DNA from: an uncultured Hormoscilla sp.
GTDB taxonomy: Bacteria; Cyanobacteriota; Cyanobacteriia; Cyanobacteriales; Desertifilaceae
Assembly: GCA_963921275.4 (NCBI GenBank)
Contig: OZ001293.3
Coordinates: 5,408,001 to 5,472,000 of the forward strand
Direction of reading: 5' to 3'
Length of the DNA stretch: 64,000 nt
The translations under genes were made by a program, and so were the position numbers. The notes below the pieces were generated by a model. The model saw only the letters and a list, made by a program, of their open reading frames with translations, made no database searches and had not been told where the DNA came from. Shown here piece by piece: positions 5,976 to 59,536 of this stretch. Every line of letters starts with the position of its first letter. The stretch's first letter is position 1.

Positions 5976-7955
5976 CTATAAAGAGCACTTGGGGCGAAGG
6001 GGAATGGCGATCGCAAACTCAGTGCCAGCATCGGGGTCCGAGAGGCAGCGCAATTGCCCGCCGTGCCGATCGACAACAATCTGGTAACTAATAGATAATC
6101 CCAAACCGGTCCCCTTGCCCACAGGTTTAGTAGTGACGAAACAGTCAAATAGGCGATTCTGCACATCTGAGGGGATACCCGAGCCATTATTCTTAATTTT
6201 AATCGCCACCTGGTCAGATTCTCCCAAACTGGTACTAATCCAAATTTTACCAGGTTGCGGGGCTGATTCTCTGATAATTGTTGATGATTTAACTCCTCCA
6301 TAGCGTCAATGGCATTGAGGAGGATATTCATAAACACCTGATTTAACTGACCGGGGTAACATTCCACCAAAGGCAGTTCACCATACTCTTTGATAATTTC
6401 AATACTAGGGCGATCTGGTTTCTCCTTCAGGCGACTGTCGAGAATCATCAAGGTGCTGTCAATGCCTTCATGGAGATCGACCTGTTTCATGTCGGCTTCA
6501 TCTAAGCGCGAGAAAGTCCGCAGGGACTTGACTATCTCCCTGATGCGAGCGGCCCCTACTTTCATCGACGCCAACAGTTTAGGAAAATCGGCGAGCAGGA
6601 ATTCCAAATCTATTTCTTCAGCAGCAGATTTAATTTCTGGATGAGGGTGAGGATAATGTTGAGCGTAAAGCTGAATCATTTCGATTAAGTCGGAAGCATA
6701 GTTTGTAGCTGGGGCAATATTACCATAGATAAAGCTAGTGAGATTATTGATTTCATGAGCAACTCCAGCGACCAACTGACCCAAAGCTGCCATTTTCTCA
6801 TTCTGAACCAACTGATTTTGAGTGTACTTGAGTTCTTGCAAGGCAACTGTCTTTTCCTGGACTTGCTGATCCAATGCATCTGTATGAATAAGCACCCGAC
6901 CTGTGAGAGGACGCAGCAACAGCACTAGACCTCCAGTACCCAGGAGACTGAGAAATGCGATCGCTATGCCGACAATTACCAGTTGCCGATTGACTGGCCC
7001 ATAAAGATCCCGGCGATCGATCTTGATAGCTAGCCCCCAGTTGCTATTTTTAATTGGCTCAATGGCAAGGATTACCGTTTCTCCTGAGGCGGCGGAAACC
7101 TTTAGCAACCCCGCCTCCCGTGATGCTACGGATTTTTCTATTGCCTGCAAGATGCCTCCCGATGCCTGAACTTGATTTCGCAAAGGGAAAAACAACTGCA
7201 CTTGGTTATTATTGACAGCGCCGAGAAGGGTTTCCCCAGTTTCTCCCAAACCCGTGTAATCTGTGACAATCCTTTGCAAACCGGTAATTTTGAACAAAAC
7301 GATGTCCGTTCCCACCCGCTGTTTAGAGATTGGGTTGATAATTGGGGATCCCACCACTAAATAGGACTCACCCTCTAGCCCGATCGGTTCTTCAACCAAG
7401 GCTTTTTTAGAACCCGCTGGCAGTATCGACCAAAATTCAGATGGAATAGGCAACCCCACCTGGGCGATCTGCTTACCAGTCGCGTCGAGGCGCGTTATCC
7501 CGACAACATCCTCGGCTTGGTTAAGGGCGTCAGTCAAGATGCTGGAGACTTCTTTACCAACCTCATCCAGGTTGATGGTTCCCCTGTTGTATTCTTGCAA
7601 CATTTTACGGGCTTTAGTGCGGCTGGCGATCTGCTCGCGGTGTCTCTCGGGAGCTCGATGTCTCCGGAGAGCGCTAATCGCACTACTCCGGAGACATCGT
7701 AGGAGCACTACCCGAGAGACACCGCGGCGACATCTTTAGCTCTGGAGAGGAATTGAGCAACCGTCATGGTGCGGGTATGCAGGGCGAACTGAATATTTCT
7801 TTCCTCCTGTTTTTTCAATTGGTTGTACAGGGGCATGATGCTCATCAGCGCCACGACGGCACCCATGCCTGCCCAAAAATACCCAGATCCCAATAAAGGA
7901 TCGGAAGACGCTGTAATTGTTTCGAGTTAGTGGGATAATTGTAATTGCTTTTCAT
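5976..7955 (-). pseudogene. Membrane sensor histidine kinase broken by frameshifts and a hairpin mini-element
   Basis: H-box LGQLVAGVAHEINN, N-box QVFMNILLNAIDA, G-box TTKPVGKGTGLGLSIS in a separate frame (5976-6227); 89-bp insertion at 7637-7725. Confidence 0.85.
7637..7725. repeat. Doubly nested hairpin mini-element
   Basis: Outer arms GCGGTGTCTCTCGGG / CCCGAGAGACACCGC; inner CGATGTCTCCGGAG-AGCGCTAATCGCACTA-CTCCGGAGACATCG. Confidence 0.85.
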
Positions 7956-8027
7956 ATTAGACTACACTACTACAATAACAAGGGATCTCATATTGCCTGT
8001 CGGGCTTCAAAGGAGGAAGCATAATAG

Positions 8028-10034
8028 ATGATATCACTTTGGCGTGAATTTCAACCCTTAGCTGCGATCGCCGTCACCTCCACTGCCACTTTTCGCCTTC
8101 AGTTTGTTACGAACCTTTGGGTGCCAGCATCTTTAGGTAATATTCCCGGGACGCAGGTTTACCAAGGTTCTCTCAAAGAACATCTTGCCACCCTGTGGTC
8201 AAACCATCGGGCTTTAATCTTCTGTCTGGCAACTGGGGCAGTTGTGCGCCTCATTGCTCCCTTGCTAAAGGATAAATCTCGCGACCCCGCTGTCATAGTT
8301 ATAGATGAAGGGGGAAAATTTGTCATCAGTTTGTGTAGCGGACATCAAGGGGGCGCTGACAAATTAGCAAGGTTAATTGCACAGCAACTGGGGGCAACTC
8401 CTATCTTAACAGGGGCATCTGCTGCCTTACAATTACCAGGAGTAGATATGCTGGGGGTTCCCTTTGGTTGGCAGCGGGGCCCAGGGGACTGGACGGAGGT
8501 AAGTGCAGCAGTTGTCAGGGGAGAACCCGTCCAGGTAATGCAAGAAGTGGGCACAACCCTTTGGCAAAAGCATCTTCCCGAAGGACATCAATTCTCTTTT
8601 CACTTGGATAATGATAAAATATCCCCCCAAGGTAGGATTTGGATTAGCCACCGCCGATTAGATCCAGAGGATGATATCCTCCAGGTACAGTGGCATCCGA
8701 GAGTGTTGTGGGTGGGAATAGGTTGCGAACGAGGAACTTCTCGTCAGCTGATTGAAAGGGCAATTACAGAAGTGATGCAGACTCATGCTTTGGCAGAAGG
8801 GGCGATCGCAGGTATTGCGACAATTGACCTAAAAGCTGATGAAGTCGGGTTGGTGGAACTCTGTCGCGATCGCCTCTTTCCCCTACGCACTTTCCCCGCA
8901 GAAGTCCTGGGTTCTGTGGCTGTTCCTACCCCTTCAGCTGTAGTCGAAAAAGCAGTAGGAACTCCCAGCGTCGCCGAAGCAGCTGCTGTACAAGCTGCGG
9001 GTGCAGAACCTTTCGATATCTCTGGTCGCTCGATGTCTTCTGGTGCTGCATCTCGTGGGAGCGCTACTCGCACTACCCACGAGATGCAGCGCGCTAGTCG
9101 CACAAAAGAGAAGACATCGTATTCGCACTACCCCAGAGACATCGAAGCATCCCTATTGGTTGCCAAGCAAATTTTTAGAACAGAAGGGGAACCAGGGGTA
9201 GTCACAGTGGCGATCGCTCAAGCTGCTGTAGAATATACAGGACGCCCAGGTAAACTATTACTTGTGGGCATCGGACCGGGGCAATTAGACCAAATCACCC
9301 CAGCTGCTCAAACTGCGATCATTAGTGCCGATGCGCTCGTCGGTTATTCTCTCTATATCGACTTAATTGCTTCTTTACGGCGTCCTGGACAAATTGTCGA
9401 AGCATTTCCTATTACACAGGAACGCCAACGGGGAGAAAGGGCGATAGAACTTGCGAAATGGGGTTTAACAGTAGCAGTAATATCTTCAGGAGATTGCGGC
9501 ATTTATGGCATGGCCGGATTAGTCATGGAACAATTGCGATCGTCCTTTTGGGATGGGAAAATCCCCATAGTGGAAGTCTTGCCCGGCATCACAGCCATGC
9601 AAGCAGCAGCAGCGAAGGTGGGTGCGCCGTTAATGCATGATTTCTGTGCCATCAGTTTGAGTGACTTGCTGACACCTTGGGAGGTAATCGAAAAGCGCCT
9701 ACACGCCGCCGCCCAAGCATATTTTGTTACCGCACTCTATAATCCCCGCTCGGCTAACCGGACTCAGCAAATAGTCACAGCCCAGCAGATATTCCTACAA
9801 TACCGTAAACCAGATACTCCTGTGGCGATCGTCCGTTCAGTTTACCGAGAATCAGAACAAATTACCCTGACAACCCTTGACAAATTCCTGGAAATTCCCA
9901 TTGATATGCTCACCACCGTGCTGATCGGCAATCAAAGTACCTACATCCACAGTGATTGGATGATTACTCCGCGCGGTTATCTATCACAAAGTTCCGCTAT
10001 TAGCCCGGGGTTCAAACCCCCGCGTCATAGCTAA
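8028..10034 (+). CDS. cobJ: CbiG-CobJ(CbiH) fusion, precorrin-3B C17-methyltransferase, with a 45-codon in-frame insertion
   Basis: CbiG motifs (DPAVIVIDE, SGHQGGA, GIGCERG, TPSVAEAAA) and CobJ motifs (VGIGPG, SSGDCGIYGMAG, HDFCAISLSDLLTPW, TPRGY). Confidence 0.93.
   Translation: MISLWREFQPLAAIAVTSTATFRLQFVTNLWVPASLGNIPGTQVYQGSLKEHLATLWSNHRALIFCLATGAVVRLIAPLLKDKSRDPAVIVIDEGGKFVISLCSGHQGGADKLARLIAQQLGATPILTGASAALQLPGVDMLGVPFGWQRGPGDWTEVSAAVVRGEPVQVMQEVGTTLWQKHLPEGHQFSFHLDNDKISPQGRIWISHRRLDPEDDILQVQWHPRVLWVGIGCERGTSRQLIERAITEVMQTHALAEGAIAGIATIDLKADEVGLVELCRDRLFPLRTFPAEVLGSVAVPTPSAVVEKAVGTPSVAEAAAVQAAGAEPFDISGRSMSSGAASRGSATRTTHEMQRASRTKEKTSYSHYPRDIEASLLVAKQIFRTEGEPGVVTVAIAQAAVEYTGRPGKLLLVGIGPGQLDQITPAAQTAIISADALVGYSLYIDLIASLRRPGQIVEAFPITQERQRGERAIELAKWGLTVAVISSGDCGIYGMAGLVMEQLRSSFWDGKIPIVEVLPGITAMQAAAAKVGAPLMHDFCAISLSDLLTPWEVIEKRLHAAAQAYFVTALYNPRSANRTQQIVTAQQIFLQYRKPDTPVAIVRSVYRESEQITLTTLDKFLEIPIDMLTTVLIGNQSTYIHSDWMITPRGYLSQSSAISPGFKPPRHS
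9012..9146. repeat. Triply nested hairpin mini-element, in frame within cobJ
   Basis: TCGATATCTCTGG...CCAGAGACATCGA encloses CGATGTCTTCT...AGAAGACATCG, which encloses TGCATCTCGTGGG-AGCGCTACTCGCACTA-CCCACGAGATGCA; 135 bp. Confidence 0.85.
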
Positions 10035-10232
10035 AGTCGGTTAAAACCGACTTAAAAAAATAGTTTTTAGTACAACAATTTTAGGACTATAATATTGTTA
10101 AAGCCCGATTGCCCAATCGCCAGCCCGCGCAGGCGGGCTTGTAACTGTAGCCGCACCCCTTGTTCCCTGGGGACCGCCTGGGAACGGTGACGGCCCCATT
10201 CCCAGGCAGAGCCGTGGGAACGGGTGACGGCG

Positions 10233-12016
10233 TTATTCTTCAGCATCGGGGTTACCACCCAATGCCCGTAGCCGAATGGCACTGACGACGAAGGAGTGAA
10301 AAAAAGCTCCAAGGCATGCTAGATAAGGATTATAGCCCTGAAGCCTAGTAAGCTATTACCCATAATCATGCCCAATCGAGCTTAGATTCTCAAGTGTCAA
10401 TTGGCTTCAAAGCAATCGCTTTACCATTCCGACAGGTGCTGCCAGAATCAGACATTCAACAGGTATGCCGAGCAAGAAAACGTCCCTCGTTCGCCATCGA
10501 TTGTTTTCGCCGGTGGTTACCCTGTGGATGTTCTTGCTGTGGATGCAGGTCATCGATATGGCTGCGCTACCCTATGGGATCAGCCTCTACTCGCACATTA
10601 GCAGTCAGTAAGGTTGTGGCCTGGTGCAGCGGGGGAGCAGGCCCCCATGGCGCAGCTATGGACACGCTTTGCCGGAGGCAAAGCCAGAAAACGTCTACCC
10701 GATCGCGTAGCGTGGCGCAGCCATACGAGTAGTGGAGCGTATGCACGACCTTACCGTACAAAAGCTAGAGCTTGGTCGCTGTAGAACTTCTTTATGGCTG
10801 CGCCCCCAGCGCAGCGCTATGGGTAAAGTGATGAGGGACTGAGGGGGTGAGGGGGTGAGGGGGTGATGAGAAAATGTTAATTTTTCGTTGATTCACAGAT
10901 ATTTTAAAATGTCGGCGTATTATTAATGGACCGATGCTCTAGAAGCTCAAGTTACTGCGAGGGCAGCTATGGCTGCGCCCCCAGGGGAGATATCTCTGCT
11001 CCTTGCTCTTGTCCCAAGGTCCATAGGGCACACAGGAGACATCGCAGCGCTATTGGTGCTAATTAAGAAGTGTGCCTGCTAGATGGCTCTTCCGTGATTA
11101 TGAGCGACACAACATGGCTGCGCCCCAGCGCAGCGCTATCAACAATCTTAAGGCTTATCGGAAACACTTCATACAACTAAAGGGCAGCATCACAAGACAA
11201 TTGCGTGATAATATATTAAATCACGCAATTGTCTTGTGATACTGGGTTGTGGTTTTCGTTTGAGCGCTCTTCGTCTTTATGTTTAGCTTGGATGAAAGTA
11301 TTGATTGCACCATTCTGCAGTTGTGAACTAGCTCCTGCACGACAGACAAAAGTATACAACCAGGAGCAAAAGTGACTGCTCTCAGGGGTAAGAAGTATTG
11401 CTGCGCCACGCTACGCGATAGGTAAGTTAGGTATTGGCGACCAGATTATTAGCCTCTACAAACCCAAAAAACGTCCCAATCACATAAGTGCTCAAGAGTG
11501 GGCAGATTTACCTGATACTGTGCAGGTATGGCTGCGCCCCCAGCAGAGATATCGAAAATGAGGCAACGGCGTCAAGAGTTGAAAGCACAGTTACTCAAAT
11601 GATGCAGGCTTAAGGTCAGTGCCATTCGCCCGTAGCCTTTCTGCCAGTCGTGCGGCCTTGGCTTCAGCCTCTTGGGCTCGGGCTTCAGCCTCTTGGGCTT
11701 TGGCTTCAGCCTGTGCAGTTCTTTGTTTTTCCAGTTCGGCTCGTTCCGAACCAGTCAACAACAGATTTCCCTGCAAATCCCACCAACGCAGCCATGGCTG
11801 TGTTTGATTCTGATAGCTTCCCTGCCAGAGTCCCAACTCTACTTCTAAGGACTCGATCGGATAGTGACCCCGTGAGTTGGGCTCCAGCTTCTGATAAACA
11901 AAATCTACCAGGTGATAGACCTCTAACTGGCTATTATCGATCTGAAAGATGCCATAGTAAGGAATCCTGATAATCTTCTCATACACCCAAAACTTGCCCG
12001 GTTTTCGTTTCACCCC
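10233..12016 (-). pseudogene. Uma2-family endonuclease fragment, interrupted by one IS4 and truncated by another
   Basis: GKFWVYE...IPYYGIF, LELGLWQGSYQ, WLRWWD, AERLRA; the native tail LGGNPDAEE* resumes at 10233-10263 beyond the IS. Confidence 0.8.
10274..11627 (+). mobile_element. Decayed IS4-family element
   Basis: IRs GAATGGCACTGAC / GTCAGTGCCATTC; 10-bp target duplication GCCCGTAGCC (10264-10273, 11628-11637); transposase remnants (LPFRQVLPESDIQQ). Confidence 0.85.
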
Positions 12017-13475: not shown

Positions 13476-13841
13476 CTATATATTGAGAAAATTTCGCCAA
13501 GGAACTGAACAATTCGATGTCTCTGCGCCAGAAACCAGAGACAAAACGATCGAACCAAACAAGGCCGGGAAGAAACCATTAACTGTAAAACCGGGAGTGA
13601 AGTATCCGACCATCGAAAGACTGATCCCATTAACCACCAACAGAAACAGACCCAAGGTCAAGATCGTTAACGGCAAGGTGAGAATTGTCAGAATGGGTTT
13701 GACGATCGCATTAACCAACCCCATCACCGCCACACCGATGGCTGCGGCCTGCCAACTGGCGATCGTCAGACCTGGAACAAGATAGGCTGTAATTGTTAGG
13801 GAGATAGCAGCCAGTACCCAAGTTAAGAAGAAATTAAGCAT
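13476..13841 (-). CDS. YvlD / phage-holin-family (DUF360) membrane protein
   Basis: VNAIVKPILTILTLPLTILTLGLFLLVVN signature; C-terminus altered beside a half mini-element (TCGATGTCTCT near 13514). Confidence 0.85.
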   Translation of the reverse strand: MLNFFLTWVLAAISLTITAYLVPGLTIASWQAAAIGVAVMGLVNAIVKPILTILTLPLTILTLGLFLLVVNGISLSMVGYFTPGFTVNGFFPALFGSIVLSLVSGAETSNCSVPWRNFLNI

Positions 13842-18418: not shown

Positions 18419-18508
18419 TGGTGAATGGTGAATAGCAAATTGAGAATGGTGAATTGAGAATGGTGAATCTCTCGATCCCAGATACCACGCCCGAACCCTA
18501 AAGGGTCC

Positions 18509-19379
18509 GTGCGATTCGTTCTAGCCTAACGTGGTCAAACACGGAACGCTAGCCCGGTTTCATTAGCCAGGAACTCTGACCGCATGGGGGTTAAATTCCC
18601 CTCCCCCCAGGTACGGGGGTGACACCGGTCCTCGGTGCTACGAAGCGACATCATCGTGGTGCTAAGCGAGGACTCAAATGTAGGATAACTGGCAGCCTAA
18701 GCCGGTGACGCCGCTAGGAAAGATATCCAAGGTTAGAGCAGGCAAACATGTGCAAGCCTCGTTATAAGGAACCAGCGAAATAAGGCTATATGCGCTGGCC
18801 TAAAAAGGAAATGGTAGCTAGTATTAGTTTTAGACTCTGGCTAATATAGTACTCAAATAGCTCCCGGGGTATAGTGTGGACCTAAAGGTATCGCGAAATG
18901 TTGTTAGGGAACGAAGTAACCTCTCGTGTGCTGTCCATCAGGACAAGTTAGATGTTAAGCGCAAGCCACGGGGGGAGGGATGGCCCAAGAAGCGAATGCC
19001 CGGGGTAATTCCTGGGATAACATCTACAGTAATGTAGATGATGCTGGGTAGCCAGCGCTGACGTGGGTCGGTGATACTAGGAAGCTGCTGGAATGAGTAA
19101 TCCTAAAAAGCCACGGAACTAATCCGAAACGCAAGTGGAGGATAAGGTATGGATAACTGGTAAAACTGACTTGAAAATGGTGATACTAACGGTTATCAGA
19201 ACAACCACTCGCTAAACCAGGAAAGGGAAGAAAAGACAGGCGGCAAGGGCTAACGGAAGTAATTCCTATTAAGTCTACCTATGAAAAGGGCCTAGTACCC
19301 AGTAGCCGGATGCGGTGAAAATCGCAAGTCCGGTTCCTCAAGGGAGGGTCGGGAAGCGATTCCCGGCTCGACCCCATCC
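18509..19379 (+). ncRNA. ORF-less group II intron (IIB/CL-like), copy A
   Basis: 5' GTGCG; domain V AGCCGGATGCGGT-GAAA-ATCGCAAGTCCGGTT (about 19304-19335); domain VI hairpin with bulged A (CGACCCCAT); short domain IV with no ORF; interrupts a REP. Confidence 0.93.
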
Positions 19380-19504
19380 AGCTACACGAACAAAGCCCGC
19401 CTGCGCGGGCTAGATTACTTGCATCATCGATGCTCTCCGGTCGCTTCGGGTGTGGTCAAAACCCGTCGATCTAACATGGGCCTTCCCAGTCGTCGGATCC
19501 CCCT

Positions 19505-19555
19505 TGCGATGTCTCGCGAAGGCCACGCTAAAAGCACTACCCAAGAGACATCGCA
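19505..19555. repeat. Degenerate hairpin mini-element inside a CCCCCTTAAAAAGGGGG-type repeat
   Basis: TGCGATGTCTC...GCACTACCCAAGAGACATCGCA. Confidence 0.7.
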
Positions 19556-23607: not shown

Positions 23608-23655
23608 TTCAGTGTCTCGTGGGAGCGCTACTCGCACTACCCACGAGACACCGAA
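23608..23655. repeat. Single-unit hairpin mini-element inserted in a REP
   Basis: TTCAGTGTCTCGTGGG-AGCGCTACTCGCACTA-CCCACGAGACACCGAA. Confidence 0.85.
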
Positions 23656-23831: not shown

Positions 23832-24293
23832 TTAACAATTCACAATTAACAAACCACGCTGAACTGCTTCCGCTAATGCTTCTGATTTTCGGAGCTGTCC
23901 GATCTGGTAAATTTGCATCAGGGCTAGTAGTTCCATTTGCTCTGCTTCAGTCAGTCCTGTAGCTTTCCCCCTTGCTTGCAGTTCGCCGAGGCGATCGTTT
24001 TGCACGGCATCCATCTTAGCATCGGCTAATTTTAGTACCTCTGCATCTGAAAGACTTGATACTGGTGGGTAAAAGCTACTATCCGGCTGACCCTCTAATG
24101 CGGACCATAGCATTGACAGTGTATCTGCGATCACCTCTGCTTCGATGTACTCCGGGCGCACTACATGCGCTGCGCGCACGCTGCGCGATCGTACTGCCCG
24201 TCGCACATCGACATCTCGCAGGGTGGCATTTCCCAGCCATTTCGCCTGTTCGACTACGCTTTCTGGCAATGCAATCGTTACTTCAACAGTCAT
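23832..24293 (-). CDS. Hypothetical antitoxin-like protein with an in-frame repeat insertion of about 23 codons
   Basis: LSDAEVLKLA, GQLRKSEALAEAVQRGL; insertion 24142-24211 bounded by TCGATG/CATCGA. Confidence 0.65.
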   Translation of the reverse strand: MTVEVTIALPESVVEQAKWLGNATLRDVDVRRAVRSRSVRAAHVVRPEYIEAEVIADTLSMLWSALEGQPDSSFYPPVSSLSDAEVLKLADAKMDAVQNDRLGELQARGKATGLTEAEQMELLALMQIYQIGQLRKSEALAEAVQRGLLIVNC

Positions 24294-31313: not shown

Positions 31314-31424
31314 TAGGCGTAGCCGTGTGCTCGGCGTCTCCACCGAAGCACTATTCGTACTACCCAGGAGACATCGGCAGCGCAATCCTTTTGGCCAGGA
31401 TATCAACTACTTTTGACCACACCC

Positions 31425-36911: not shown

Positions 36912-37808
36912 ATGAAAAAGATCATAGACTGGAGTAAGCCTGTGGTTTGCTGGACAATAGTGGCGATCGCCTCCATGCAGGGGACTGCGTTGAGTCAAGT
37001 CCAGAGGGTAGCGGTATCCCCTGGGAGCTTGATGTCCCCCGGACGCACTCCGATGCCTTCGGGATGCTTCGCAAAAACCCCGAAGGCATCGTCGAAACCC
37101 GGGAGACATCATCTGAGCACTACCCAGGGGGATACCGCACAGGCATTTCCGGGAAAATGTGCGATGGCGAGAGAGGAGATATTTGTGTACAACTCCCCTG
37201 CTACCTCGGGACGGAGAATTAGAAGTCTGCGTCCGGAAGAACAGGTCGCGTTGGTAGATGAGGGGATAAATGGATGGATAGCGATCAATTCTCCGATCAA
37301 GGGGTTCGTACAGATAAAAGACCTGAAACCATGCAGCCCGATCGGGGAATGCCGGGCTGCCAAACAGGGGATATTTGTGTACGACAAACCTGACAGTTCG
37401 GGACGAAAAATTAGAAGCATACTGACTAACGAAGAAGTTACCATTGCCGGGACGAATGAGAATGGTTGGATAGCGATTAGTTCTCCGGCGAACGGGTTTG
37501 TCCAGACGGTGGACCTGAAAAGCTGCGAGGGAGGCAATCGGCCCCCTGGGGAGAATACAGGATCCTGTCGCCGAGTTACAGACCTTGTGGGTCAGGGACT
37601 GAATATCCGGGCACAACCAAATACTGAATCTGATATTATCGGATCGTTGTTTGCAGGAGATATAGTCAGACTCAAAAGCACCGAGAACAGGGTAGATCCA
37701 ACGGGGCGGAACTGGGTGGCGATCGCATCCCCTTAAGAAGGGTGGATATCTGAGGGGTTCCGGGACTCCGAGAGGAGAAATCTGGAAGCGGCTGCTTGTC
37801 CGCGTTAA
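36912..37808 (+). pseudogene. Secreted multi-SH3b-domain protein with an in-frame mini-element and a premature stop at 37734
   Basis: Signal peptide, three GWIAI.SP..GFV-type repeats, GLNIRAQPN; frame continues EGWISEG after TAA. Confidence 0.75.
37011..37138. repeat. Triply nested hairpin mini-element, in frame
   Basis: GCGGTATCCCCTGGG / CCCAGGGGGATACCGC encloses TGATGTCCCCCGG / CCGGGAGACATCA, which encloses CGATGCCTTCGGG / CCCGAAGGCATCG. Confidence 0.85.
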
Positions 37809-39655: not shown

Positions 39656-40526
39656 GTGCGATTCGTTCTAGCCTAACGTGGTCAAACACGGAACGCTAGC
39701 CCGGTTTCATTAGCCGGGAACTCTGACCGCATGGGGGTTAAATTCCTCTCCCCCCAGGTACGGGGGTGACACCGGTCCTCGGTGCTACGAAGCGACATCA
39801 TCGTGGTGCTAAGCGAGGACTCAAATGTAGGATAACTGGCAGCCTAAGCCGGTGACGCCGCTAGGAAAGATATCCAAGGTTAGAGCAGGCAAACATGTGC
39901 AAGCCTCGTTATAAGGAACCAGCGAAATAAGGCTATATGCGCTGGCCTAAAAAGGAAATGGTAGCTAGTATTAGTTTTAGACTCTGGCTAATATAGTACT
40001 CAAATAGCTCCCGGGGTATAGTGTGGACCTAAAGGTATCGCGAAATGTTGTTAGGGAACGAAGTAACCTCTCGTGTGCTGTCCATCAGGACAAGTTAGAT
40101 GTTAAGCGCAAGCCACGGGGGGAGGGATGGCCCAAGAAGCGAATGCCCGGGGTAATTCCTGGGATAACATCTACAGTAATGTAGATGATGCTGGGTAGCC
40201 AGCGCTGACGTGGGTCGGTGATACTAGGAAGCTGCTGGAATGAGTAATCCTAAAAAGCCACGGAACTAATCCGAAACGCAAGTGGAGGATAAGGTATGGA
40301 TAACTGGTAAAACTGACTTGAAAATGGTGATACTAACGGTTATCAGAACAACCACTCGCTAAACCAGGAAAGGGAAGAAAAGACAGGCGGCAAGGGCTAA
40401 CGGAAGTAATTCCTATTAAGTCTACCTATGAAAAGGGCCTAGTACCCAGTAGCCGGATGCGGTGAAAATCGCAAGTCCGGTTCCGAAAGGGAGGGTCGGG
40501 AAGCGATTCCCGGCTCGACCCCATCC
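39656..40526 (+). ncRNA. ORF-less group II intron, copy B1
   Basis: GTGCG...CGACCCCATCC, near-identical to copy A; preceded by GAGTCT, complementary to the putative EBS1 AGACTC. Confidence 0.93.
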
Positions 40527-41396
40527 GTGCGATTCGTTCTAGCCTAACGTGGTCAAACACGGAACGCTAGCCCGGTTTCATTAGCCGGGAACTCTGACCG
40601 CATGGGGGTTAAATTCCCCTCCCCCCAGGTACGGGGGTGACACCGGTCCTCGGTGCTACGAAGCGACATCATCGTGGTGCTAAGCGAGGACTCAAATGTA
40701 GGATAACTGGCAGCCTAAGCCGGTGACGCCGCTAGGAAAGATATCCAAGGTTAGAGCAGGCAAACATGTGCAAGCCTCGTTATAAGGAACCAGCGAAATA
40801 AGGCTATATGCGCTGGCCTAAAAAGGAAATGGTAGCTAGTATTAGTTTTAGACTCTGGCTAATATAGTACTCAAATAGCTCCCGGGGTATAGTGTGGACC
40901 TAAAGGTATCGCGAAATGTTGTTAGGGAACGAAGTAACCTCTCGTGTGCTGTCCATCAGGACAAGTTAGATGTTAAGCGCAAGCCACGGGGGGAGGGATG
41001 GCCCAAGAAGCGAATGCCCGGGGTAATTCCTGGGATAACATCTACAGTAATGTAGATGATGCTGGGTAGCCAGCGCTGACGTGGGTCAGTGATACTAGGA
41101 AGCTGCTGGAATGAGTAATCCTAAAAAGCCACGGAACTAATCCGAAACGCAAGTGGAGGATAAGGTATGGATAACTGGTAAAACTGACTTGAAAATGGTG
41201 ATACTAACGGTTATCAGAACAACCACTCGCTAAACCAGGAAAGGGAAGAAAAGACAGGCGGCAAGGGCTAACGGAAGTAATTCCTATTAAGTCTACCTAT
41301 GAAAAGGGCCTAGTACCCAGTAGCCGGATGCGGTGAAAATCGCAAGTCCGGTTCCTCAAGGGAGGTCGGGAAGCGATTCCCGGCTCGACCCCATCC
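40527..41396 (+). ncRNA. ORF-less group II intron, copy B2
   Basis: Directly abuts B1 (CCCCATCC|GTGCG); one G missing in domain VI. Confidence 0.93.
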
Positions 41397-42268
41397 GTGC
41401 GATTCGTTCTAGCCTAACGTGGTCAAACACGGAACGCTAGCCCGGTTTCATTAGCCGGGAACTCTGACCGCATGGGGGTTAAATTCCCCTCCCCCCAGGT
41501 ACGGGGGTGACACCGGTCCTCGGTGCTACGAAGCGACATCATCGTGGTGCTAAGCGAGGACTCAAATGTAGGATAACTGGCAGCCTAAGCCGGTGACGCC
41601 GCTAGGAAAGATATCCAAGGTTAGAGCAGGCAAACATGTGCAAGCCTCGTTATAAGGAACCAGCGAAATAAGGCTATATGCGCTGGCCTAAAAAGGAAAT
41701 GGTAGCTAGTATTAGTTTTAGACTCTGGCTAATATAGTACTCAAATAGCTCCCGGGGTATAGTGTGGACCCTCAAGGTATCGCGAAATGTTGTTAGGGAA
41801 CGAAGTAACCTCTCGTGTGCTGTCCATCAGGACAAGTTAGATGTTAAGCGCAAGCCACGGGGGGAGGGATGGCCCAAGAAGCGAATGCCCGGGGTAATTC
41901 CTGGGATAACATCTACAGTAATGTAGATGATGCTGGGTAGCCAGCGCTGACGTGGGTCGGTGATACTAGGAAGCTGCTGGAATGAGTAATCCTAAAAAGC
42001 CACGGAACTAATCCGAAACGCAAGTGGAGGATAAGGTATGGATAACTGGTAAAACTGACTTGAAAATGGTGATACTAACGGTTATCAGAACAACCACTCG
42101 CTAAACCAGGAAAGGGAAGAAAAGACAGGCGGCAAGGGCTAACGGAAGTAATTCCTATTAAGTCTACCTATGAAAAGGGCCTAGTACCCAGTAGCCGGAT
42201 GCGGTGAAAATCGCAAGTCCGGTTCCTCAAGGGAGGGTCGGGAAGCGATTCCCGGCTCGACCCCATCC
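41397..42268 (+). ncRNA. ORF-less group II intron, copy B3
   Basis: Directly abuts B2; private variant GGACCCTCAAGG. Confidence 0.93.
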
Positions 42269-46998: not shown

Positions 46999-47530
46999 AG
47001 GTCTATCCTCCGTTACTTAACTTTATCTGTACCATAACTTTTCTCTTCGCTTCTGATTCTACCGGAAAACTTGCATAACGGGACTTTGAGATTTTCTCAG
47101 GCAAAAAACGGCTTCTTAGCTTACCGGGTGTGGGTTTTACGTCGAAGGGTATCAAATGGCAGCAAACCCGCTCCCCTGGGTCGAGGGAGACCAGGGAGAC
47201 CCCACTGTGGCTCTGTGAAAGGGTTTGATGTCATTTTACGCCTATTTTTTCTCAAAGTCCCGATAAAAATGTCTTGACGCCTTTCATTCTGACTATCTGT
47301 GCATTCCCAGATCGGTGCTGTGATCGCCAACCGCTACCACTCCCTCACCCTAAAGGGTGAGGCTAAACAAACAAAGCCCGCCTGCGCGGGCTAGATTACA
47401 TTAAAGAGATAGTCCCGATCGGGTCAAACATGGGTGGCCTGAAAACTATGCTGGGAGGCAGGAGATCGCCTATCGCCTTGAGCGAACGCCACCGATATTT
47501 TAACCTCCCCAGTGAGTCAGAGCAACTCTC

Positions 47531-50611: not shown

Positions 50612-50667
50612 GGCAAGTTTATTGCTACACTTGGCTCAGGACTGTAACAGACGATCGTAGTTAAGAT

Positions 50668-52239: not shown

Positions 52240-52369
52240 TAAAAAATTCCCAAGTTGTAGGTTTGGTTTCGTGCCTCAACCCAATCGGTTGCTGGCTTTT
52301 GCTGACGATATCGATGGTGAGAGTCTGGTTTTATTAATTGTGGGGAATTCCCCGGATTTGATCTAATAG

Positions 52370-52501
52370 GTTCGTAGTGAGGACTTCAGTCCTCAAGCAG
52401 TTAGGGGTGAGGGAAGGACTAAAGTCCTTACTACGAACGGAGGGAAGGACTTTAGTCCTTACTATGAACGGAGGGAAGGACTAAAGTGCTTACTACGAAC
52501 G
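52370..52501. repeat. REP-like hairpin repeats, 3 direct and 1 inverted
   Basis: GGAAGGAC-TAAA-GTCCTTACTACGAACGGAG units. Confidence 0.85.
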
Positions 52502-52528
52502 AGGAGAACGAACAATGAGCAATTGACA

Positions 52529-53863
52529 ATGAGCAAGAAACCAAAGATAATAGTAATAGATGACGACCCCACAGGTTCTCAAACAGTACATAGCTGCTTG
52601 CTGCTGTTGCGGTGGGATGTGGAAACTTTGCAGTTGGGACTTGCTGATGAAGCGCCGATCTTCTTTGTGCTGACGAATACCCGGGCCCTGACACCAGAAA
52701 AAGCTGAGGCGGTGACCTCAATTGTATGCCAGAATCTTAAAGAGGCGATCGCCCTAGAAGGAATAGAAGATTTCCTCGTAGTCAGTCGTTCGGACTCTAC
52801 CCTGCGGGGACATTATCCGATAGAAACGGATGTCATAGCAGCAGAAGTCGGTCCCTTCGACGCCCATTTTCTGGTGCCAGCATTCTTTGAAGGAGGGCGC
52901 ATAACCCGGGATAGCATACATTACCTGACGGCAAACGGCGTCGAGACGCCAGTACATGAAACAGAATTTGCCCGAGATTCAGTTTTTGGCTACCATAACT
53001 CCTATCTCCCAGATTATGTAGAGAAAAAGACAAAAGGAAAAATTCCTGCCGACAAGGTAGAAAAATTTTTACTGGCAGATATTCGCAGCGGTACTCAGTC
53101 GCGCCTGATGCAACTGGAAAAGAACCAATGTGTAGTAGTGGATGGGGAAACCCAAGGAGACTTAGATAAGTTTGCCGCTGATGTCCTGGCAACAGCAGCT
53201 AAGGGGAAACGTTTTCTATTTAGAAGTGCAGCGAGTATTTTAACCTCTCTGGCAGCATTACCACCACAACCAGTAATGCCCACACATATGAATCAATATG
53301 TGCGGGAAGGCAAACCGGGTATAGCGATAGTGGGTTCCCACGTGAAAAAAACTAGCCAGCAGTTAGAACGTTTGCTGCCCCAACCAGGTATAGTAGGGAT
53401 TGAGGTGAAGGTTACCGATCTGCTAACAGAGTCGGCAGGACAACGAGAGGAATTGTTGGATGAGACCCTCATCAAGGTGCGGCAAGTCCATGGCACGGGG
53501 AAAACACCGGTAGTATATACGAGTCGCGAGGAAATTACCTTCTCAGATGTACAGACTAGGTTAGAATTTGGGGCAGCAGTCTCGGGTTTGCTGATGGATA
53601 TCCTGCGGGGTCTGCCAATGGATATCGGTTATTTGATTAGTAAGGGTGGCATTACCTCTAATGATACCTTATCCAAAGGTCTGCTGTTACAATCGGCAAG
53701 GCTACTGGGTCAAATTATCCCCGGATGTTCGATGGTCCGTACACCCATAAACCATCCTCAATTTCCCAATTTGCCAGTAGTGCTGTTTCCTGGTAATGTC
53801 GGAGATGCAGACGCGCTGGTCACAGTTTACGAACGGTTGATGGTTGATGGCAATGAACAATGA
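52529..53863 (+). CDS. Four-carbon acid sugar kinase family (DUF1537)
   Basis: DDDPTG, RSDSTLRGH, VGSHV..T, KGGITS, FPGNVG. Confidence 0.9.
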   Translation: MSKKPKIIVIDDDPTGSQTVHSCLLLLRWDVETLQLGLADEAPIFFVLTNTRALTPEKAEAVTSIVCQNLKEAIALEGIEDFLVVSRSDSTLRGHYPIETDVIAAEVGPFDAHFLVPAFFEGGRITRDSIHYLTANGVETPVHETEFARDSVFGYHNSYLPDYVEKKTKGKIPADKVEKFLLADIRSGTQSRLMQLEKNQCVVVDGETQGDLDKFAADVLATAAKGKRFLFRSAASILTSLAALPPQPVMPTHMNQYVREGKPGIAIVGSHVKKTSQQLERLLPQPGIVGIEVKVTDLLTESAGQREELLDETLIKVRQVHGTGKTPVVYTSREEITFSDVQTRLEFGAAVSGLLMDILRGLPMDIGYLISKGGITSNDTLSKGLLLQSARLLGQIIPGCSMVRTPINHPQFPNLPVVLFPGNVGDADALVTVYERLMVDGNEQ

Positions 53864-54840
53864 ACAATGAACGAGATGCCGAAAAGCAATTGATTGTCAA
53901 GAATGCCGAACAGGAGTCGGAGGCGGCAGCATCCTCTCTATCCATGGAAACAAAAGAGTCGGCTGAAAATGTGGAGAATAAGGGAGAGGCAGAAAATGCT
54001 GTAGGGTCTGGGGAAGCGGCGACTATTAGCGCCTCGAAGTCGCCGTCGGCACCAGAGTCGGGGGAAAAACTTCCAGAGTCGTCCGAAAAAATCCAGGGAA
54101 AAACAACAGGCGATCTGCATCTGCAAGTACGGTTGAAAGCAGCAGGGGACCACCTGCTGTTAATGCTGCCTCCAGAAACAGAATTCGGGGGAACCTGGAA
54201 CGAGTTGTGGCAGCAGTTGCAACTGCGGTTTCAAGGGGGAGTAAAGTTTTGGCAACCCCAAAGTCAAGTGCATCTGATGGCCAGAGAAAGGTTACTGGAT
54301 GGGCGGCAGTTACAGGCGATCGCGGACGCCCTGTCCCAAGTGCAGTTGCAACTGAAGCGAGTGGAGACAAGTCGGAGGCAAACGGCAGTAGCAGCGGCCA
54401 CCAGTGGCTACTCAGTAGAACAGATATCACCCGATCGTCACCTACAGCAAGCACCAGAGGCAGAACCCCTAGCAGAACCACTATATCTGGAAACAACCGT
54501 GCGATCAGGAGTAGAGATCCGTCACCCAGGAAATGTGGTAATCTTAGGAGATATCAACCCAGGGGGTGCAGTAATCTGCCAAGGAGATATCCTAGTATGG
54601 GGGCGTCTGCGGGGAGTGGCCCATGCAGGAGTAGATGGGAACAGCGACTGCCTCATCATGGCCCTGCAAATGGAACCAACCCAACTGCGGATCGCTAATT
54701 ATTTGGCCAGAGCGCCCCAGGAACCACCAGCCCAATATTACCCGGAAGTTGCCTACGCGACCACAGAGGGGATTAGAATAGCCAGAGCCTCGGATTTTAT
54801 GAAAAAGCCAACGGACGAGCAGCGAAGGAAAGAATCATGA
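53860..54840 (+). CDS. minC: Septum site-determining protein MinC
   Basis: TVRSGVEI, GDINPGG, WGRLRGVAHAG; operon with minD and minE. Confidence 0.95.
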   Translation: MNNERDAEKQLIVKNAEQESEAAASSLSMETKESAENVENKGEAENAVGSGEAATISASKSPSAPESGEKLPESSEKIQGKTTGDLHLQVRLKAAGDHLLLMLPPETEFGGTWNELWQQLQLRFQGGVKFWQPQSQVHLMARERLLDGRQLQAIADALSQVQLQLKRVETSRRQTAVAAATSGYSVEQISPDRHLQQAPEAEPLAEPLYLETTVRSGVEIRHPGNVVILGDINPGGAVICQGDILVWGRLRGVAHAGVDGNSDCLIMALQMEPTQLRIANYLARAPQEPPAQYYPEVAYATTEGIRIARASDFMKKPTDEQRRKES

Positions 54841-55637
54841 GCCGTATCATTGTGATCACATCTGGGAAAGGAGGGGTGGGAAAAACCACCTGTACCGCCA
54901 ATTTGGGCATGGCACTAGCGCAGCGGGGTCGGCAAGTGGTACTGGTGGATGCTGACTTTGGACTGCGGAATTTGGACCTACTGCTGGGGTTGGAAAATCG
55001 GATCGTTTACACGGCAGTGGAAGTGATAGCTGGGGAATGCAGGTTGGAACAAGCTTTAGTCAGAGATAAGCGCGAACCCCGGGTGACCCTGCTGCCAGCA
55101 GCTCAAAATCGCACGAAAGATGCTATTAACTCCGAGCAAATGGCCCAGTTGATCGAAAAGTTGGCAGCAGGTGGCTACGATTACATTATCATAGATTGCC
55201 CCGCTGGCATAGAGACGGGCTTTAAAAATGCGATCGCCGCTGCGGAGGAGGCAGCGATCGTGACGACGCCAGAAATAGCGGCAGTCCGGGACGCGGACAG
55301 GGTGGTAGGCTTGTTAGAAGCAAGCAATATCAAAAAAATTAATTTAATAGTCAACAGGCTGAAACCAGCAATGGTAGAAGCGAATGATATGATGTCAGTA
55401 CAGGACGTGCAAGAAATTCTGGCAATTCCCCTCATGGGGGTGATTCCCGACGATGAGTGCGTGATTGTATCTACTAACAAGGGAGAACCTGTAGTCTTAT
55501 CGGCAAATAGTTCCCTCCCGAAGGCGGCATTTGCCAATATTGCTGGCCGTCTGGAAGGGGAAAAGGTTGACTTTCTGGAGCTCAAAGAACAAAATGAAGG
55601 TTTCTTAGCCCGGATCAAACGCCTGTTTTGGAAATAG
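54837..55637 (+). CDS. minD: Septum site-determining ATPase MinD
   Basis: SGKGGVGKTT, DFGLRNLDLLLGLENR, AVRDADRVVG, C-terminal membrane-targeting helix. Confidence 0.97.
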   Translation: MSRIIVITSGKGGVGKTTCTANLGMALAQRGRQVVLVDADFGLRNLDLLLGLENRIVYTAVEVIAGECRLEQALVRDKREPRVTLLPAAQNRTKDAINSEQMAQLIEKLAAGGYDYIIIDCPAGIETGFKNAIAAAEEAAIVTTPEIAAVRDADRVVGLLEASNIKKINLIVNRLKPAMVEANDMMSVQDVQEILAIPLMGVIPDDECVIVSTNKGEPVVLSANSSLPKAAFANIAGRLEGEKVDFLELKEQNEGFLARIKRLFWK

Positions 55638-55700
55638 TGGAACAAGCATTGAAGAGTTCGGTAAAGCAGTGACAAGTTGTAAAAATATCCCCCGCCAGCG

Positions 55701-55994
55701 ATGCTAAGCGAAATATTAGAAAAATTGTTTCCCTGGACAAGCAATCCGAATAGTCGCGAGGAAGTAAAGCGTCGCCTGAAAGTAGTGCTAGCATACGATC
55801 GGGCGGGTTTGAACCCGGAGATGGTGAGGAAAATGAGGGAGGAAATATTAGAGGTAGTATCTCGCTACGTGGAAATTAATTCCGAAGAGTTGGAGTTTTT
55901 GATCGAAAACAACGATCGGGCGACAGCATTAATAGCAAATATGCCAATTAGAAGAGTGAAAGTCAGGGAATTTGAGTCGGAAGCGGAAGGGTAG
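55701..55994 (+). CDS. minE: Cell division topological specificity factor MinE
   Basis: [27 protein letters not shown]. Confidence 0.95.
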
Positions 55995-56010
55995 TAGCAG
56001 AGAGAAGAGG

Positions 56011-56499
56011 ATGACAGATATTAAAGAAACTATGAGTTGCGACTCTTTAGCAGAATGCGTGAAGGCATTGTCTATGTCGGCGATAGAACGTCACGTATTT
56101 ATATGTGCAGATCAGACAGTGCCGAAATGCTGCGATAAAGAAGCGAGTTTAGAATCATGGAATTACTTGAAAAAGCGCCTGAAAGAACTGCAACTTGATA
56201 GGCCCACAGAGGCCCGATCGGGTAGCATATTCCGCACGAAGGCCAATTGCCTGCGAGTTTGTCAACAAGGACCGATTGTAGTTGTTTACCCCGATGGAGT
56301 ATGGTATCATAGCTGCACGCCCGCAGTGCTGGAGCGGATTATCGCATCCCATCTGCTGGGTGGGGAGGTACTGTCGGAATATGCCTTCCTGACCCACCCC
56401 TTACCAGAAGTAGCGCCCGGCCAACAGGAAATGGCCATAGAGGAATCTGAGGAATCTGAGGAATCTGAGGAATTTACAGGTTCAGAGACCGGGGCATAG
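56011..56499 (+). CDS. Thioredoxin-like (2Fe-2S) ferredoxin
   Basis: HVFIC...[24 protein letters not shown]. Confidence 0.88.
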
Positions 56500-56585
56500 G
56501 AAAAAGAACACGTTAGAATAGGTATAACCCCGTTAATACTGTATAATAGATATAAAGCGAGTAAAGCAAAAAGAGGGAAAAGAAG

Positions 56586-57224
56586 ATGGAAAATCAGAAG
56601 CGACTGCTACTGGTTGACGACGACCCTAACCTAATCTTGCTAGTCAGGGACTATCTAGAATTTCGAGGGTACGGCGTCATGACGGCAGATAATGGTAGAC
56701 AGGCGTTAGAGATTCTAGAACAGGAATATCCGGACATGATTATCTGCGATGTGATGATGCCGGAAATGGACGGATACACACTAGTAAAACAGGTGAGGGA
56801 AAACCCGAAAACAAATTTAATCCCATTTGTATTTCTATCGGCGAAAGGTCACAGTGCAGACAAGGTGAAGGGATTGAATAGGGGGGCTGATGTCTATATG
56901 GCGAAGCCCTTTGAGCCAGAAGAGTTGGTGGCGCAAGTAGAATCATCCCTGAAGCAGGCATTGCGCTTGCTGGTTCACAAGCCTCCGAGGGCAATTTCGA
57001 CAGAATCAATATTCCAGAACGTGCCTGCGGACGTAACCTTGACCCCCACAGAGTTAAAGGTGGTACAATTTGTATCCCAGGGGATGGCGAATCGGGAAAT
57101 TGCGGAGGAAATGAATATCAGTCAGCGGACAGTGGAAAGCCACGTGTCCAATATGCTGGGTAAAACTGGCCTGCATAACCGCACGGAATTGGCTCGCTGG
57201 GCCATGGAAAATAATATGGCTTGA
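56586..57224 (+). CDS. NarL/LuxR-family response regulator (Ycf29/Rre1-like)
   Basis: VDDD, CDVMMP, KPF receiver motifs; HTH RTVESHVSNMLGKTGLHNRTELARWA. Confidence 0.92.
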   Translation: MENQKRLLLVDDDPNLILLVRDYLEFRGYGVMTADNGRQALEILEQEYPDMIICDVMMPEMDGYTLVKQVRENPKTNLIPFVFLSAKGHSADKVKGLNRGADVYMAKPFEPEELVAQVESSLKQALRLLVHKPPRAISTESIFQNVPADVTLTPTELKVVQFVSQGMANREIAEEMNISQRTVESHVSNMLGKTGLHNRTELARWAMENNMA

Positions 57225-57609
57225 AAATAGGATGACCAGGGATCGGAGTCAGCAATCGCACTCCGATTCCTGCTAAGTACATAGGCAAAATTATTTTGAT
57301 ATTTTTTCCAGCCGTCAATTCCATAGAAGTTAAATCCATGAAAGCCTTATGGGATAGGGATTTCAGTCATAATTTTCTTGCAAGCTCGCCTAAACCACAA
57401 ATATAAAAATAATTTTGCACAACTACTTATGAGATCCGTTCGATCTGGAGCGCCGCGCCTGCGGCCTGCTAGTAGACCACGCCGCAAATAATTCCGATAA
57501 CTTAGATGAGCAACGGCTTACCGATATAAGTCCAGCGAAACGGTTTAGCTAAGGTATCATTAAAGAAATCAATGAATGCGAGAATACGAATGCATGAGTT
57601 CTTCAACCT

Positions 57610-57748
57610 TCGATGTCTCCTGGGATCTCGATGTTCCCCGGGAGCTTGATGTCCCCCCACCAGGGGACGTGCTAGGCGCACCACCCCCAAGACATCATAT
57701 TCGCACTACTTGGGGAACATCGTACTCGCACAAAAGGGGAGACATGGA
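57610..57748. repeat. Triply nested hairpin mini-element
   Basis: Three successive (C/T)GATGT left arms and three ACAT(C/G) right arms separated by TA.TCGCAC. Confidence 0.85.
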
Positions 57749-58207
57749 CGTGAAGTTGCCAGCTGTGAGCAAGCGGCGGGTCAAAATCCCAAACCTTCTT
57801 TCCACCTGATTGAGCCATGAGCAATGTTTAAGAGTATACACTTGCGCGGATGCTAGGCTAGCGATTTTGCCAAAAATCTGCACGGGAAGCCATGCTTTGG
57901 AGAATACCCGACTTCCCCTTCAAACCTAATGTCTCTTCAATGCCGCACAACTCAGCCACAAGATTAACCAGACTTTCTTCTTTGTGGGTATTCAACTGGT
58001 CGCAAATAAATATCCATTGACCCTGGGGGTCGGTTTCCACAGCGGATATGGCAGTTCTCATATTACTGTAATATGTCGGAGATTGCGTCGGGGGGGGGTA
58101 ACTCTATGAAGGCATAAGTGACTCGCCTTACTCCCCCCCTCGCTCCGGCCCTGAATATGCCAGGGCTTCCAGGGCGCGGTTTGTCTGCCTTTAGCTTGCC
58201 AATCCGC

Positions 58208-58297
58208 TACGATGTTTCCCGAGAGCTCGATGTTTCCCGGGAGCGCTAATCGCACAAAAGGGGAAACATCGTAGTCGCACAAAAGGGGAAACATCTA
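58208..58297. repeat. Doubly nested hairpin mini-element
   Basis: CGATGTTTCCCG x2, AGCGCTAATCGCAC loop, AAAAGGGGAAACATC x2. Confidence 0.85.
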
Positions 58298-58830
58298 CCC
58301 GCAATTCTTTAGACTTACCCGTGAATTTTTCGTTCCTCATGGGCACCCTCTATCCACCTCTTCCGCCAAAGACCGACAGGATCTTCCCACATGTCGTCTT
58401 GGCTAACGTTTTGTTATTATCGCCGGCGGCCGCTTTCAGGACAATCTGTGTCCGCACCACCTGTGCGGCGTTTCACGACTGCGGGCAATCCCTGAGAGCA
58501 GTTCGGGAGTGTTCTGGCATGAGGTTGAGCGGTTTCGTCGGTCGGGCCATGTTCTTTCGTTTTGTGTTTTTGTAACTTAGCTGTGATTATAACACACTAG
58601 CCAACATTTGTGCTCTTATTGCGGTAGGGAGCACCACTGAAATTATGGCCCGGCAAGGGTTTCAGCCAATCCTGATGCGAGTTATTGCCTCGGCTAGCTA
58701 TATTATCAGATATATTTGCGGTGTGGGCTACTAGTCATTTATTTTCGCCATGCTATACTAGGGAAGAGCATTTTTACTTTTGACTCGCGTGGGGGAATGT
58801 AAAGAAAAGTAAAATAATCCTGAAATAGGG

Positions 58831-58860
58831 TTGCCGATCGGACCGAGGCTTTGCTATAGT
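58831..58860 (+). promoter_or_regulatory. Sigma70-type promoter of the tRNA gene
   Basis: TTGCCG-N18-TATAGT with TG extension, 12 nt upstream of the tRNA. Confidence 0.6.
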
Positions 58861-58872
58861 GTTTATATAAAT

Positions 58873-58944
58873 GCCGGTGTGACTCAGGGGTAGAGTAGCT
58901 GATTTGTAATCAGCCTGTCGCAGGTTCAAATCCTGTCACCGGCT
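58873..58944 (+). tRNA. trnT: tRNA-Thr(UGU)
   Basis: Acceptor stem GCCGGTG/CACCGGC, anticodon arm GCTGA-TTTGTAA-TCAGC, T-loop GGTTCAAATCC; CCA not encoded. Confidence 0.96.
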
Positions 58945-59305
58945 TTGTTTCACTGATTCGGATGATTCGTAATTGATTCGTAAGCTAATTGAAAGCGATC
59001 GCATGTTTAACATGCCCACACCTCTATCGGCCGCACCCAAGATTCCAGGGTTTTCTTGGCAGTCGCGATCGCCTCTTGGGTGGGATCTGCTGCGAAGCTT
59101 AACAGGTTAATTAACTCCCAATGTTGATAGACCGGTGATTGCTATGACGCTTCACGCCTCGCTACCTTTGCTAACAGCCCTGTTCTTAGTAATGCCCATC
59201 GCCACCGCTGGGCGGCCATCTCGTCCAGACATTTAACCTCGATCTACCAGAATCTCAATCGCCAGGATATCGATGGGGTCTGAACCGTAGCAATCAGTAT
59301 TCGCA

Positions 59306-59536
59306 CTACTCCGGAGACATCACTCGCTCAATCTGGTGTTGATGATGTTCAACCCAAGCCTTGACGACAGTGCCGTGTAGGCGATCGCGTGTTCCATACC
59401 CAAGGGATAAAGTGACCTCTCTTCCGCAATTATCAAAAGTGAACTGCCTGCCAACTCTGCGGTATTCGACAGGCTTTTTGCCTACTTGAAAATCCTCAAA
59501 GTATTGGCGCTTCAATGGGATAAATAATGGTTTCAT
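59306..59536 (-). pseudogene. ASCH-domain-like protein truncated by a mini-element arm
   Basis: LFIPLKRQYFEDF..GKK.VEYR, LSLGYG; ends in TGATGTCTCCGGAGTAG. Confidence 0.6.

Follow-up and report, generated by a model that had tools for sequence, protein, structure and literature searches.

A self-nesting hairpin element of Hormoscilla and the target motif beside its insertions

Hairpin units in the window and across the genus

The 64,000-nt stretch analysed here (the window, C1:5408001-5472000 of the HIP1-rich, 7.0-Mb genome G000) comes from Hormoscilla, a sponge-associated cyanobacterial genus, and carries eleven copies of a small hairpin unit that stand singly, nested within one another, or in broken form, together with a further sibling hairpin (Table 1). 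The first triple nest adds a net 132 nt, or 44 codons, in frame to a gene in which cbiG is fused to a cobJ-like methylase, and the open reading frame (ORF) stays open through it; its site is empty in G002, G003 and G004, three of the four congeners compared (with G001, five Hormoscilla genomes including G000), and matches from other genera run across the site. The triple nest at 37012 likewise lies in frame, within an SH3-domain ORF (36912-37736), and the double nest at 7638 has an empty allele in G001, with a net difference of +89. A preliminary description of this DNA had listed eleven positions, each of which holds the type of feature described there, including the single units (19507, 23610), the double nests (7638, 58210) and the triple nests (9014, 37012, 57611). 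It erred in detail on the supposed remnants, two of which are indeed a decayed sibling (13515) and an orphan half (59298) while the other two are nearly whole (31332-31376) or whole with a foreign repeat in the loop (24143-24210). The inner units of the nest at 37012, like the unit at 13515, combine arms of the usual kind with sibling loops.

Table 1. Hairpin units, associated target motifs and one host gene in the window (window coordinates).
Feature	Position	Strand	Remarks
Double nest	7638..7724	+	Inner unit (7656-7699) sits at the most frequent junction, host position 19
Target motif CATC of the 7638..7724 nest	7731-7734	+	
Host gene, cbiG fused to tetrapyrrole methylase (cobJ-like)	8028..10034	+	Pfam, translation
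Triple nest	9012..9144	+	Outer 9014-9144, middle 9031-9119 (position 19), inner 9046-9089 (position 14)
Sibling hairpin (54-56-nt loop type)	10988..11044	+	Same kind of stem ends; absent from the preliminary description
Decayed sibling	13515..13552	+	Left arm shared; short, different loop
Single unit	19507..19553	+	Short insertion disturbs left arm
Canonical single unit	23610..23653	+	Inside an arm of another hairpin repeat
Whole unit	24143..24210	+	Loop holds 24-nt repeat of another family
Near-complete single unit	31332..31376	+	Empty paralogous site in G000
Triple nest	37012..37137	+	Canonical outer unit, two sibling-loop inner units
Target motif CATT of the 37012..37137 nest	37144-37147	+	
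Triple nest	57611..57747	+	Both inner units at host position 19
Double nest	58210..58296	+	One filled and one empty paralogue in G000
Target motif AATT of the 58210..58296 nest	58303-58306	+	
Orphan 3' half	59298..59322	+	Loop tail and right arm

The unit consists of a 42-nt core, with 13-bp arms and a 16-nt loop, and a further closing C-G pair, so that a 14-bp stem and the loop make 44 nt, and the insertion is usually 45 nt long. Its 5' tail is most commonly TT, with TTC at the left end of 87 of 203 single units and target-derived or duplicated letters in some others. The loop extends the stem through a bulge and a near-invariant C.A mismatch that becomes a G.T wobble when the complementary strand is read. 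Of 271 units, 249 fold better as the opposite strand when treated as RNA, and 220 when treated as DNA; the five window hairpins tested on the plus strand have fold z values of -3.7 to -10.9. Sibling hairpins, 40-56 nt long, combine the stem ends of the unit with other loops. The units are not a product of chance, for a weight matrix built on the 3' half scores 747 of them above 14 in G000 and 2 in the reversed chromosome, and a heuristic parser, which mis-pairs some long spans, assigns 585 of the 747 to the top level and 162 to the inside of another unit.

Exact copies of the loop 18-mer number 129 in G000 and 24 (G001), 41, 42 and 61 in the four congeners, with none in 56 other genomes, and a species-wide collection gave at least 78 exact matches to the loop pattern, with Hormoscilla titles for all 78 among the matches listed. 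The preliminary description had proposed building a covariance model from these copies and scanning related genomes; across 140 other genomes of the order, at 43 candidates scored per genome, this model returned one weak match only (E 3e-4). Judged by these sequence matches, the family is confined to the genus Hormoscilla among the genomes searched. None of the eight Rfam matches in the window overlaps a unit.

Of 547 loci, 159 lie inside crudely called ORFs, 118 in the sense and 41 in the antisense direction, and because a single linker-like frame accounts for 29 of the 54 long-ORF cases, this bias points to selection rather than to the mechanism of insertion. Top-level units are split into 301 on the plus and 284 on the minus strand, neighbours are uncorrelated and GC skew is flat, so that the data are uninformative on a replication-strand bias; the common strand of the 11 copies in the window is compatible with a chance run. 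Oppositely oriented parts occur inside seven G000 loci, and the two half-composites at C1:676277-678190, inverted and separated by 1.9 kb, are what an inversion between two elements would leave. Orphan halves occur often. Elsewhere in G000, two elements lie in frame in a thymidylate-kinase-like ORF (C1:4718103-4718871), and four lie within one ORF (C1:2804024-2806499).

Insertion sites, unit ends and the target motif

An all-against-all flank search that took in G000, 2.4 Mb of G002 (6.4 Mb in all) and some 115 short loci from G001, G003 and G004 found empty alleles for 81 of the 615 top-level elements examined, or 68 after identical flanks had been removed, numbers bounded by the coverage of G002. 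Because these empty alleles lie both in unique genes of the congeners and in paralogues, the unit is mobile, and it is inserted in one orientation. The opposite possibility, that the units are immobile and their copies and nests reflect recombination among old repeats or assembly artefacts, is very improbable: conversion between units does occur, but the empty alleles are clean, the assemblies are five and independent, and the target motif described below is one-sided. Some insertions are in frame within genes. Asymmetric units have empty alleles too, which argues that perfect pairing is not required for movement.

The 68 filled and empty pairs also define the ends of the insertion. Beyond the 42-nt core there are 3 additional bases in 33 pairs, 1 in 11, 4 in 9 and 2 in 8, and more rarely -1 (three pairs), 5 (two), -3 (one) or 6 (one), so that the net insertion is mostly 43-47 nt with a mode of 45; it replaces 0-3 target bases and is accompanied by no constant target duplication. 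The 3' end stands in a fixed register and the 5' end is ragged, and this asymmetry suggests one-ended joining. Snap-back templating of the 5' tail fits a few cases and is not general, and contigs from four sequencing runs yielded nothing on element junctions. A DDE transposase or an uncharacterised nuclease might produce such ends if the 14-bp stem, which bears a 5' overhang of 2 nt, served as a single processed transposon end, from which one 3'-OH would be transferred before repair completed the insertion. The stem-end geometry, the one-sided register and the many insertion sequence (IS) genes of G000 accord with this explanation; it is nonetheless unlikely, given that no transposase ORF in G000 is bracketed by stem ends within 4 kb, that the ends of IS607 are unrelated to the unit, and that IS110 is fragmentary and unrelated as well.

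With numbering on the loop-sense strand, where +1 is the G after the core, flank logos read T-V-A-T-Y at +7 to +11, and the motif V-A-T-Y thus occupies +8 to +11 from the 3' end of the core. VAT begins at +8 in 171 of 429 non-nested sites (443 less 14 arm-nested ones) against a background of 5.4%, compared with 4-27 sites at other offsets, and it is present at +8 in all five Hormoscilla genomes. The motif belongs to the target, with A at +9 in 36 and T at +10 in 38 of 62 empty alleles, and T at +9 in just 3. The G at +1 is mostly borne by the element, since only 23 of the 62 empty alleles have it. There is no comparable motif on the other flank, and targets considered as hairpins show a weak shift alone (69 empty alleles, p=0.04). 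The motif is the same for all arm types and all net lengths, and target covariation with the variable loop base is not among the top pairs, both of which argue against guide pairing between loop and target. Sibling loops share the motif, with VATY at 18 of 32 sites for one and C, A, T and T at 72, 61, 50 and 56 percent for another. This target motif is a new finding of the present analysis.

One important consideration is whether such a motif requires a dedicated enzyme at all. It might instead be a primase start on the lagging-strand template, with the polymerase switching from the 9-10-nt primer to a free hairpin and then returning. The motif is indeed trinucleotide-like, with T dominant at +10 and avoided at +9, its distance would fit the length of a primer, and these hairpins evidently undergo frequent template switching. 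However, the register is a single sharp peak without shoulders, the 15- and 24-nt repeat families of G000 are without the motif, and the strong conservation of the loop suggests a specific binding protein, so we consider this explanation decidedly unlikely. These 15- and 24-nt families and a GC-rich one are micro-repeats in their own right, each with more than 100 distinct sites, local targets and no distal motif, and they are seen at 24161-24185 and 10700-11560 of the window as well as genome-wide.

Self-nesting and arm covariation

The preliminary description had proposed that the unit targets its own loop, at one preferred junction. Nesting is far from random: in 96 of 106 simple direct nests the cut point is host position 19 or 14, and these 96 form four junction classes. 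The junction named in that description is matched exactly in 61 of the 106, cases that comprise 57 different outer-inner arm pairs; 22 of the 106 lie at the arm/loop border. Among 615 paired units there are 117 nests at position 19, 50 at position 14, 12 at position 33 (about one of them false) and 1 at position 44, and position 33 is in the right arm rather than in the loop. A motif matrix trained without nested sites ranks 33, 44, opposite-strand 33, 14, opposite-strand 14 and 19 at the top of 88, and one inverted insertion fits opposite-strand 33. The used positions 14, 19 and 33 are therefore internal matches to the general target motif, which lies 3' of the insertion point, and the idea of own-loop targeting is retained only as non-random self-nesting.

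Nesting also occurs in place. One orthologous locus is single in G000 and G002 and nested in G004, between orthologues an inner unit is seen to have arrived with altered flanking loop bases, and in one junction class all 8 members share one loop base that varies elsewhere. On these grounds we infer that homing-like copying between units adds to new insertion.

The arms differ between copies and yet remain complementary, as had been noted from the window. Two-sided changes occupy 202 cells against 45.9 in shuffles, a value reached by 0 of 500 shuffles (73 copies from five genomes), and perfect 13-bp arms are found in 117 of 265 distinct units with 66 different sequences, although the percentage paired is inflated because the parser required pairing. 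At one orthologous locus a 5-nt block appears as arms A/A in G000, A/B in G004 and B/B in G003, and at another the loop is flipped. The covariation is thus partly the result of in-place copying of one arm onto the other and not of selection only. The idea of a structure-defined mobile unit is supported by the empty alleles. Arm homogenisation and spacer inversion at hairpins fit template switching, which excerpts of PMC8604942 give as a known cause of both. Covariation in a hairpin can therefore come from in-place arm copying, a caution for the inference of RNA structure from repeats.

Proposed mechanism, candidate enzymes and related elements

Our preferred reading, to which we give a probability of roughly 45%, is that the unit, a mobile, non-coding hairpin about 45 nt long, is inserted by a one-ended reaction that places its 3' end upstream of V-A-T-Y with constant spacing. 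A motif-reading protein would place the cut, the 3' end of the unit would be joined or copied first at that cut, and the 5' end would then be sealed by imprecise repair. In transit the unit may be a single strand folded on itself, of the form TTC-core-G and at times carrying 1-3 bases of flank, and the likeliest chemistry would be target-primed synthesis across the hairpin. The fixed 3' register, the ragged 5' end, the short deletions and duplications and the carried-over flank bases all fit a one-ended join followed by repair. Nesting would arise from the unit's own motif matches at 14, 19 and 33, and its excess probably from units copying into one another in a homing-like manner and from a preference for hairpins as substrates.

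Several observations weigh against this reading. The congeners are 92-95% identical, some filled and empty pairs are paralogues of one event and some rows are noisy; for most pairs insertion and later loss are not polarised; and the letters at the 3' junction vary, with the filled allele differing from the empty one at +1 in 39 of 62 and at +2 in 23 of 62. Stem mismatches (A.C 104, G.T 66) favour folding of the opposite strand, so that the loop-sense strand is not singled out as the folded intermediate. Among 32 equal-length orthologue pairs one-sided arm changes outnumber two-sided ones by 34 to 9, indicating that arm correction is not immediate. From the motif, only 0.36% of insertions would be expected to fall in units, whereas about 29% do, an excess of about 80-fold, and position 19 is used far more than the higher-scoring 33, so that the motif explains where nesting occurs and not how often. 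Finally, no candidate enzyme was tied to the element in the searches made, G001 has the element (24 exact loops) with just 2 intron and 3 reverse transcriptase (RT) matches, and 125 group II intron 3' exons are without the +8 motif, from which it follows that the intron endonuclease is probably not the motif reader.

For the polymerase, a group II intron RT borrowed in trans is the leading named candidate, put forward tentatively. RT matches number 93 in G000, 79 in G002 and 46 in G004 compared with 2-6 in sister genera. Excerpts of PMC3280974 describe linear group II intron RNA as joining precisely at the 3' end and with errors at the 5' end, and according to parts of 10.1101/2022.03.14.484287 group II RTs anneal microhomologies and snap back. 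The trans-acting RT of the preliminary description accordingly survives in this limited form, weakened by the intron 3' exons and by the RT-poor G001. Another possibility, about which we are equally guarded, is that the integration is of an undescribed one-ended type, in which a protein would read a 4-nt motif, measure 6-7 nt and join any hairpin that has a suitable stem end through its one 3' end, and the cargo would freely swap loops and arms and carry decoy targets that drive Russian-doll growth. ORF-less group II introns with four D5/D6 matches lie at 18509-19379 and 40448-42266 of the window, more than 150 occur in G000, and a sequencing-run contig joins the 3' end of the first of these introns, at 19376, back to its own 5' end, at 18506, as in a circle or a tandem copy.

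A REP-associated HUH transposase had been the other candidate mobiliser named from the window. A Y1 HUH enzyme (TnpA/RAYT) would cut and paste the folded single strand at replication forks, with junction variation left to later repair or conversion. Such an enzyme would suit the bulged hairpin, the strand asymmetry, the absence of a constant duplication and the GTAG on the opposite strand; the 5' tail resembles the REPIN intermediate proposed in passages of PMC3116915; and Y1 genes are present in all five Hormoscilla genomes, with 213-aa ones in G001, G002 and G004. The intact RAYT-like ORF of G000 (179 aa, minus strand, C1 about 2007194-2007730) was missed by the Pfam genome search, and the hairpin repeat family that flanks it also inserts in the 3' side of the element's loop. 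All three Y1 loci of G000, the genome whose Y1 flanks were inspected (extra Y1 genes of G001, G002 and G004 lay outside this inspection), are flanked by other repeats, with the nearest unit 3-10 kb away and none within 3 kb. The GTAG is internal to the stem, and 44 of 271 units have lost it; neighbours within 2 kb have the same orientation in only 86 of 163 pairs, a comparison of low power given the flat GC skew. Known Y1 enzymes read bases adjacent to the cut and join both ends exactly, whereas the motif here is 6-7 nt from the cut. We therefore regard a Y1 mobiliser as doubtful and do not retain it as the enzyme proposed.

Further candidates were rejected. Tyrosine recombinase matches (PF00589) number 0 in G000, G001, G002 and G004, which are 93-97% complete, and 2 in G003, which also counts against integron attC sites; the four genomes without a match thus apparently have no XerC/D, while all 14 control genomes and the sister genera do have a PF00589 match. 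Cas1 is absent from all five Hormoscilla genomes, arguing against a CRISPR spacer or Cas1 product, IscB/IsrB number 0 in G000, and TnpB is present but without a guide. Sixteen ORFs have a unit on either side and, read by eye, look like ordinary genes, apart from one IS transposase.

The closest known elements, compared by description, are the small dispersed repeats (SDRs) of the Nostocaceae, SDR1-8, which are likewise tiny, non-coding, structure-conserving, dispersed, self-nesting and cyanobacterial, and the kinship in kind suggested from the window is borne out: the unit is dispersed, mobile, shorter than 100 nt, compensatory in structure and nested in its own copies (162 of 747). Those described by Elhai et al. 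in 2008 are reportedly 21-27 nt long, with SDR1 and SDR4 nested, so that the Hormoscilla unit at 43-47 nt is about twice that size, and it differs further in being a single long hairpin with a distal target motif. SDR5 inserts between nt 3 and 4 of HIP1 according to parts of PMC4390886, whereas none of 478 junctions here rebuilds HIP1. Sections of PMC5861425 state that no SDR-like repeat had been found outside the Nostocaceae, where the Hormoscilla family lies. A literature search of titles and abstract openings, with subscription papers outside its scope, found no description of this family. The element is thus real, mobile and restricted to its genus, and its target rule lends itself to testing. 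The movement of SDR-like micro-elements has been a question since 2008, and because this family offers copies by the hundred, alleles in the empty state, a target rule that can be measured and ends that differ, candidate enzymes can now be tested against a defined donor and target.

Other comparisons are partial. As in REP/REPIN sequences, as portrayed in excerpts of PMC3116915 and PMC6006769, the unit is a non-autonomous hairpin with an asymmetric form that has a 5' tail and inserts in or beside copies; unlike them, it flanks no RAYT in G000, has variable arms and a conserved loop, lacks GTAG/GTGG at the 5' foot (its GTAG being inside the stem on the opposite strand), and is often inside genes (159 of 547 loci, including cbiG) rather than extragenic. 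It shares with MITEs (miniature inverted-repeat transposable elements), as outlined in parts of PMC3184786, terminal inverted repeats, non-autonomy and empty and filled sites, but has no constant target duplication and no parent IS with the same ends in G000, and it is orientation-specific. Its resemblance to linear group II intron retrohoming (PMC3280974, in part) lies in the register of the 3' end and the error-prone 5' join; it differs from group II introns in being without ribozyme domains (no Rfam match) and in its target motif, which differs from G000 intron targets. In Rickettsia, palindromic elements insert in frame, and, compared by description, both are palindromic DNA in frame in protein genes. 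Those elements are 105-146 bp long (PMC3184786, in part), and the Hormoscilla unit is less than half that size and self-nesting; it adds 15-codon segments to core genes.

Two observations concern other repeats of the genome. Rfam CRISPR-DR28 matches at 19389-19412 and 47370-47393 of the window match the flanking repeat of the Y1 gene at C1:241795 and, since the genus has no cas1, are probably REP-like and not CRISPR. A recently active IS607 element with a serine TnpA and a 564-aa TnpB-like ORF (C1:49880-51690) has four or five more copies in G000 that are more than 99% identical.

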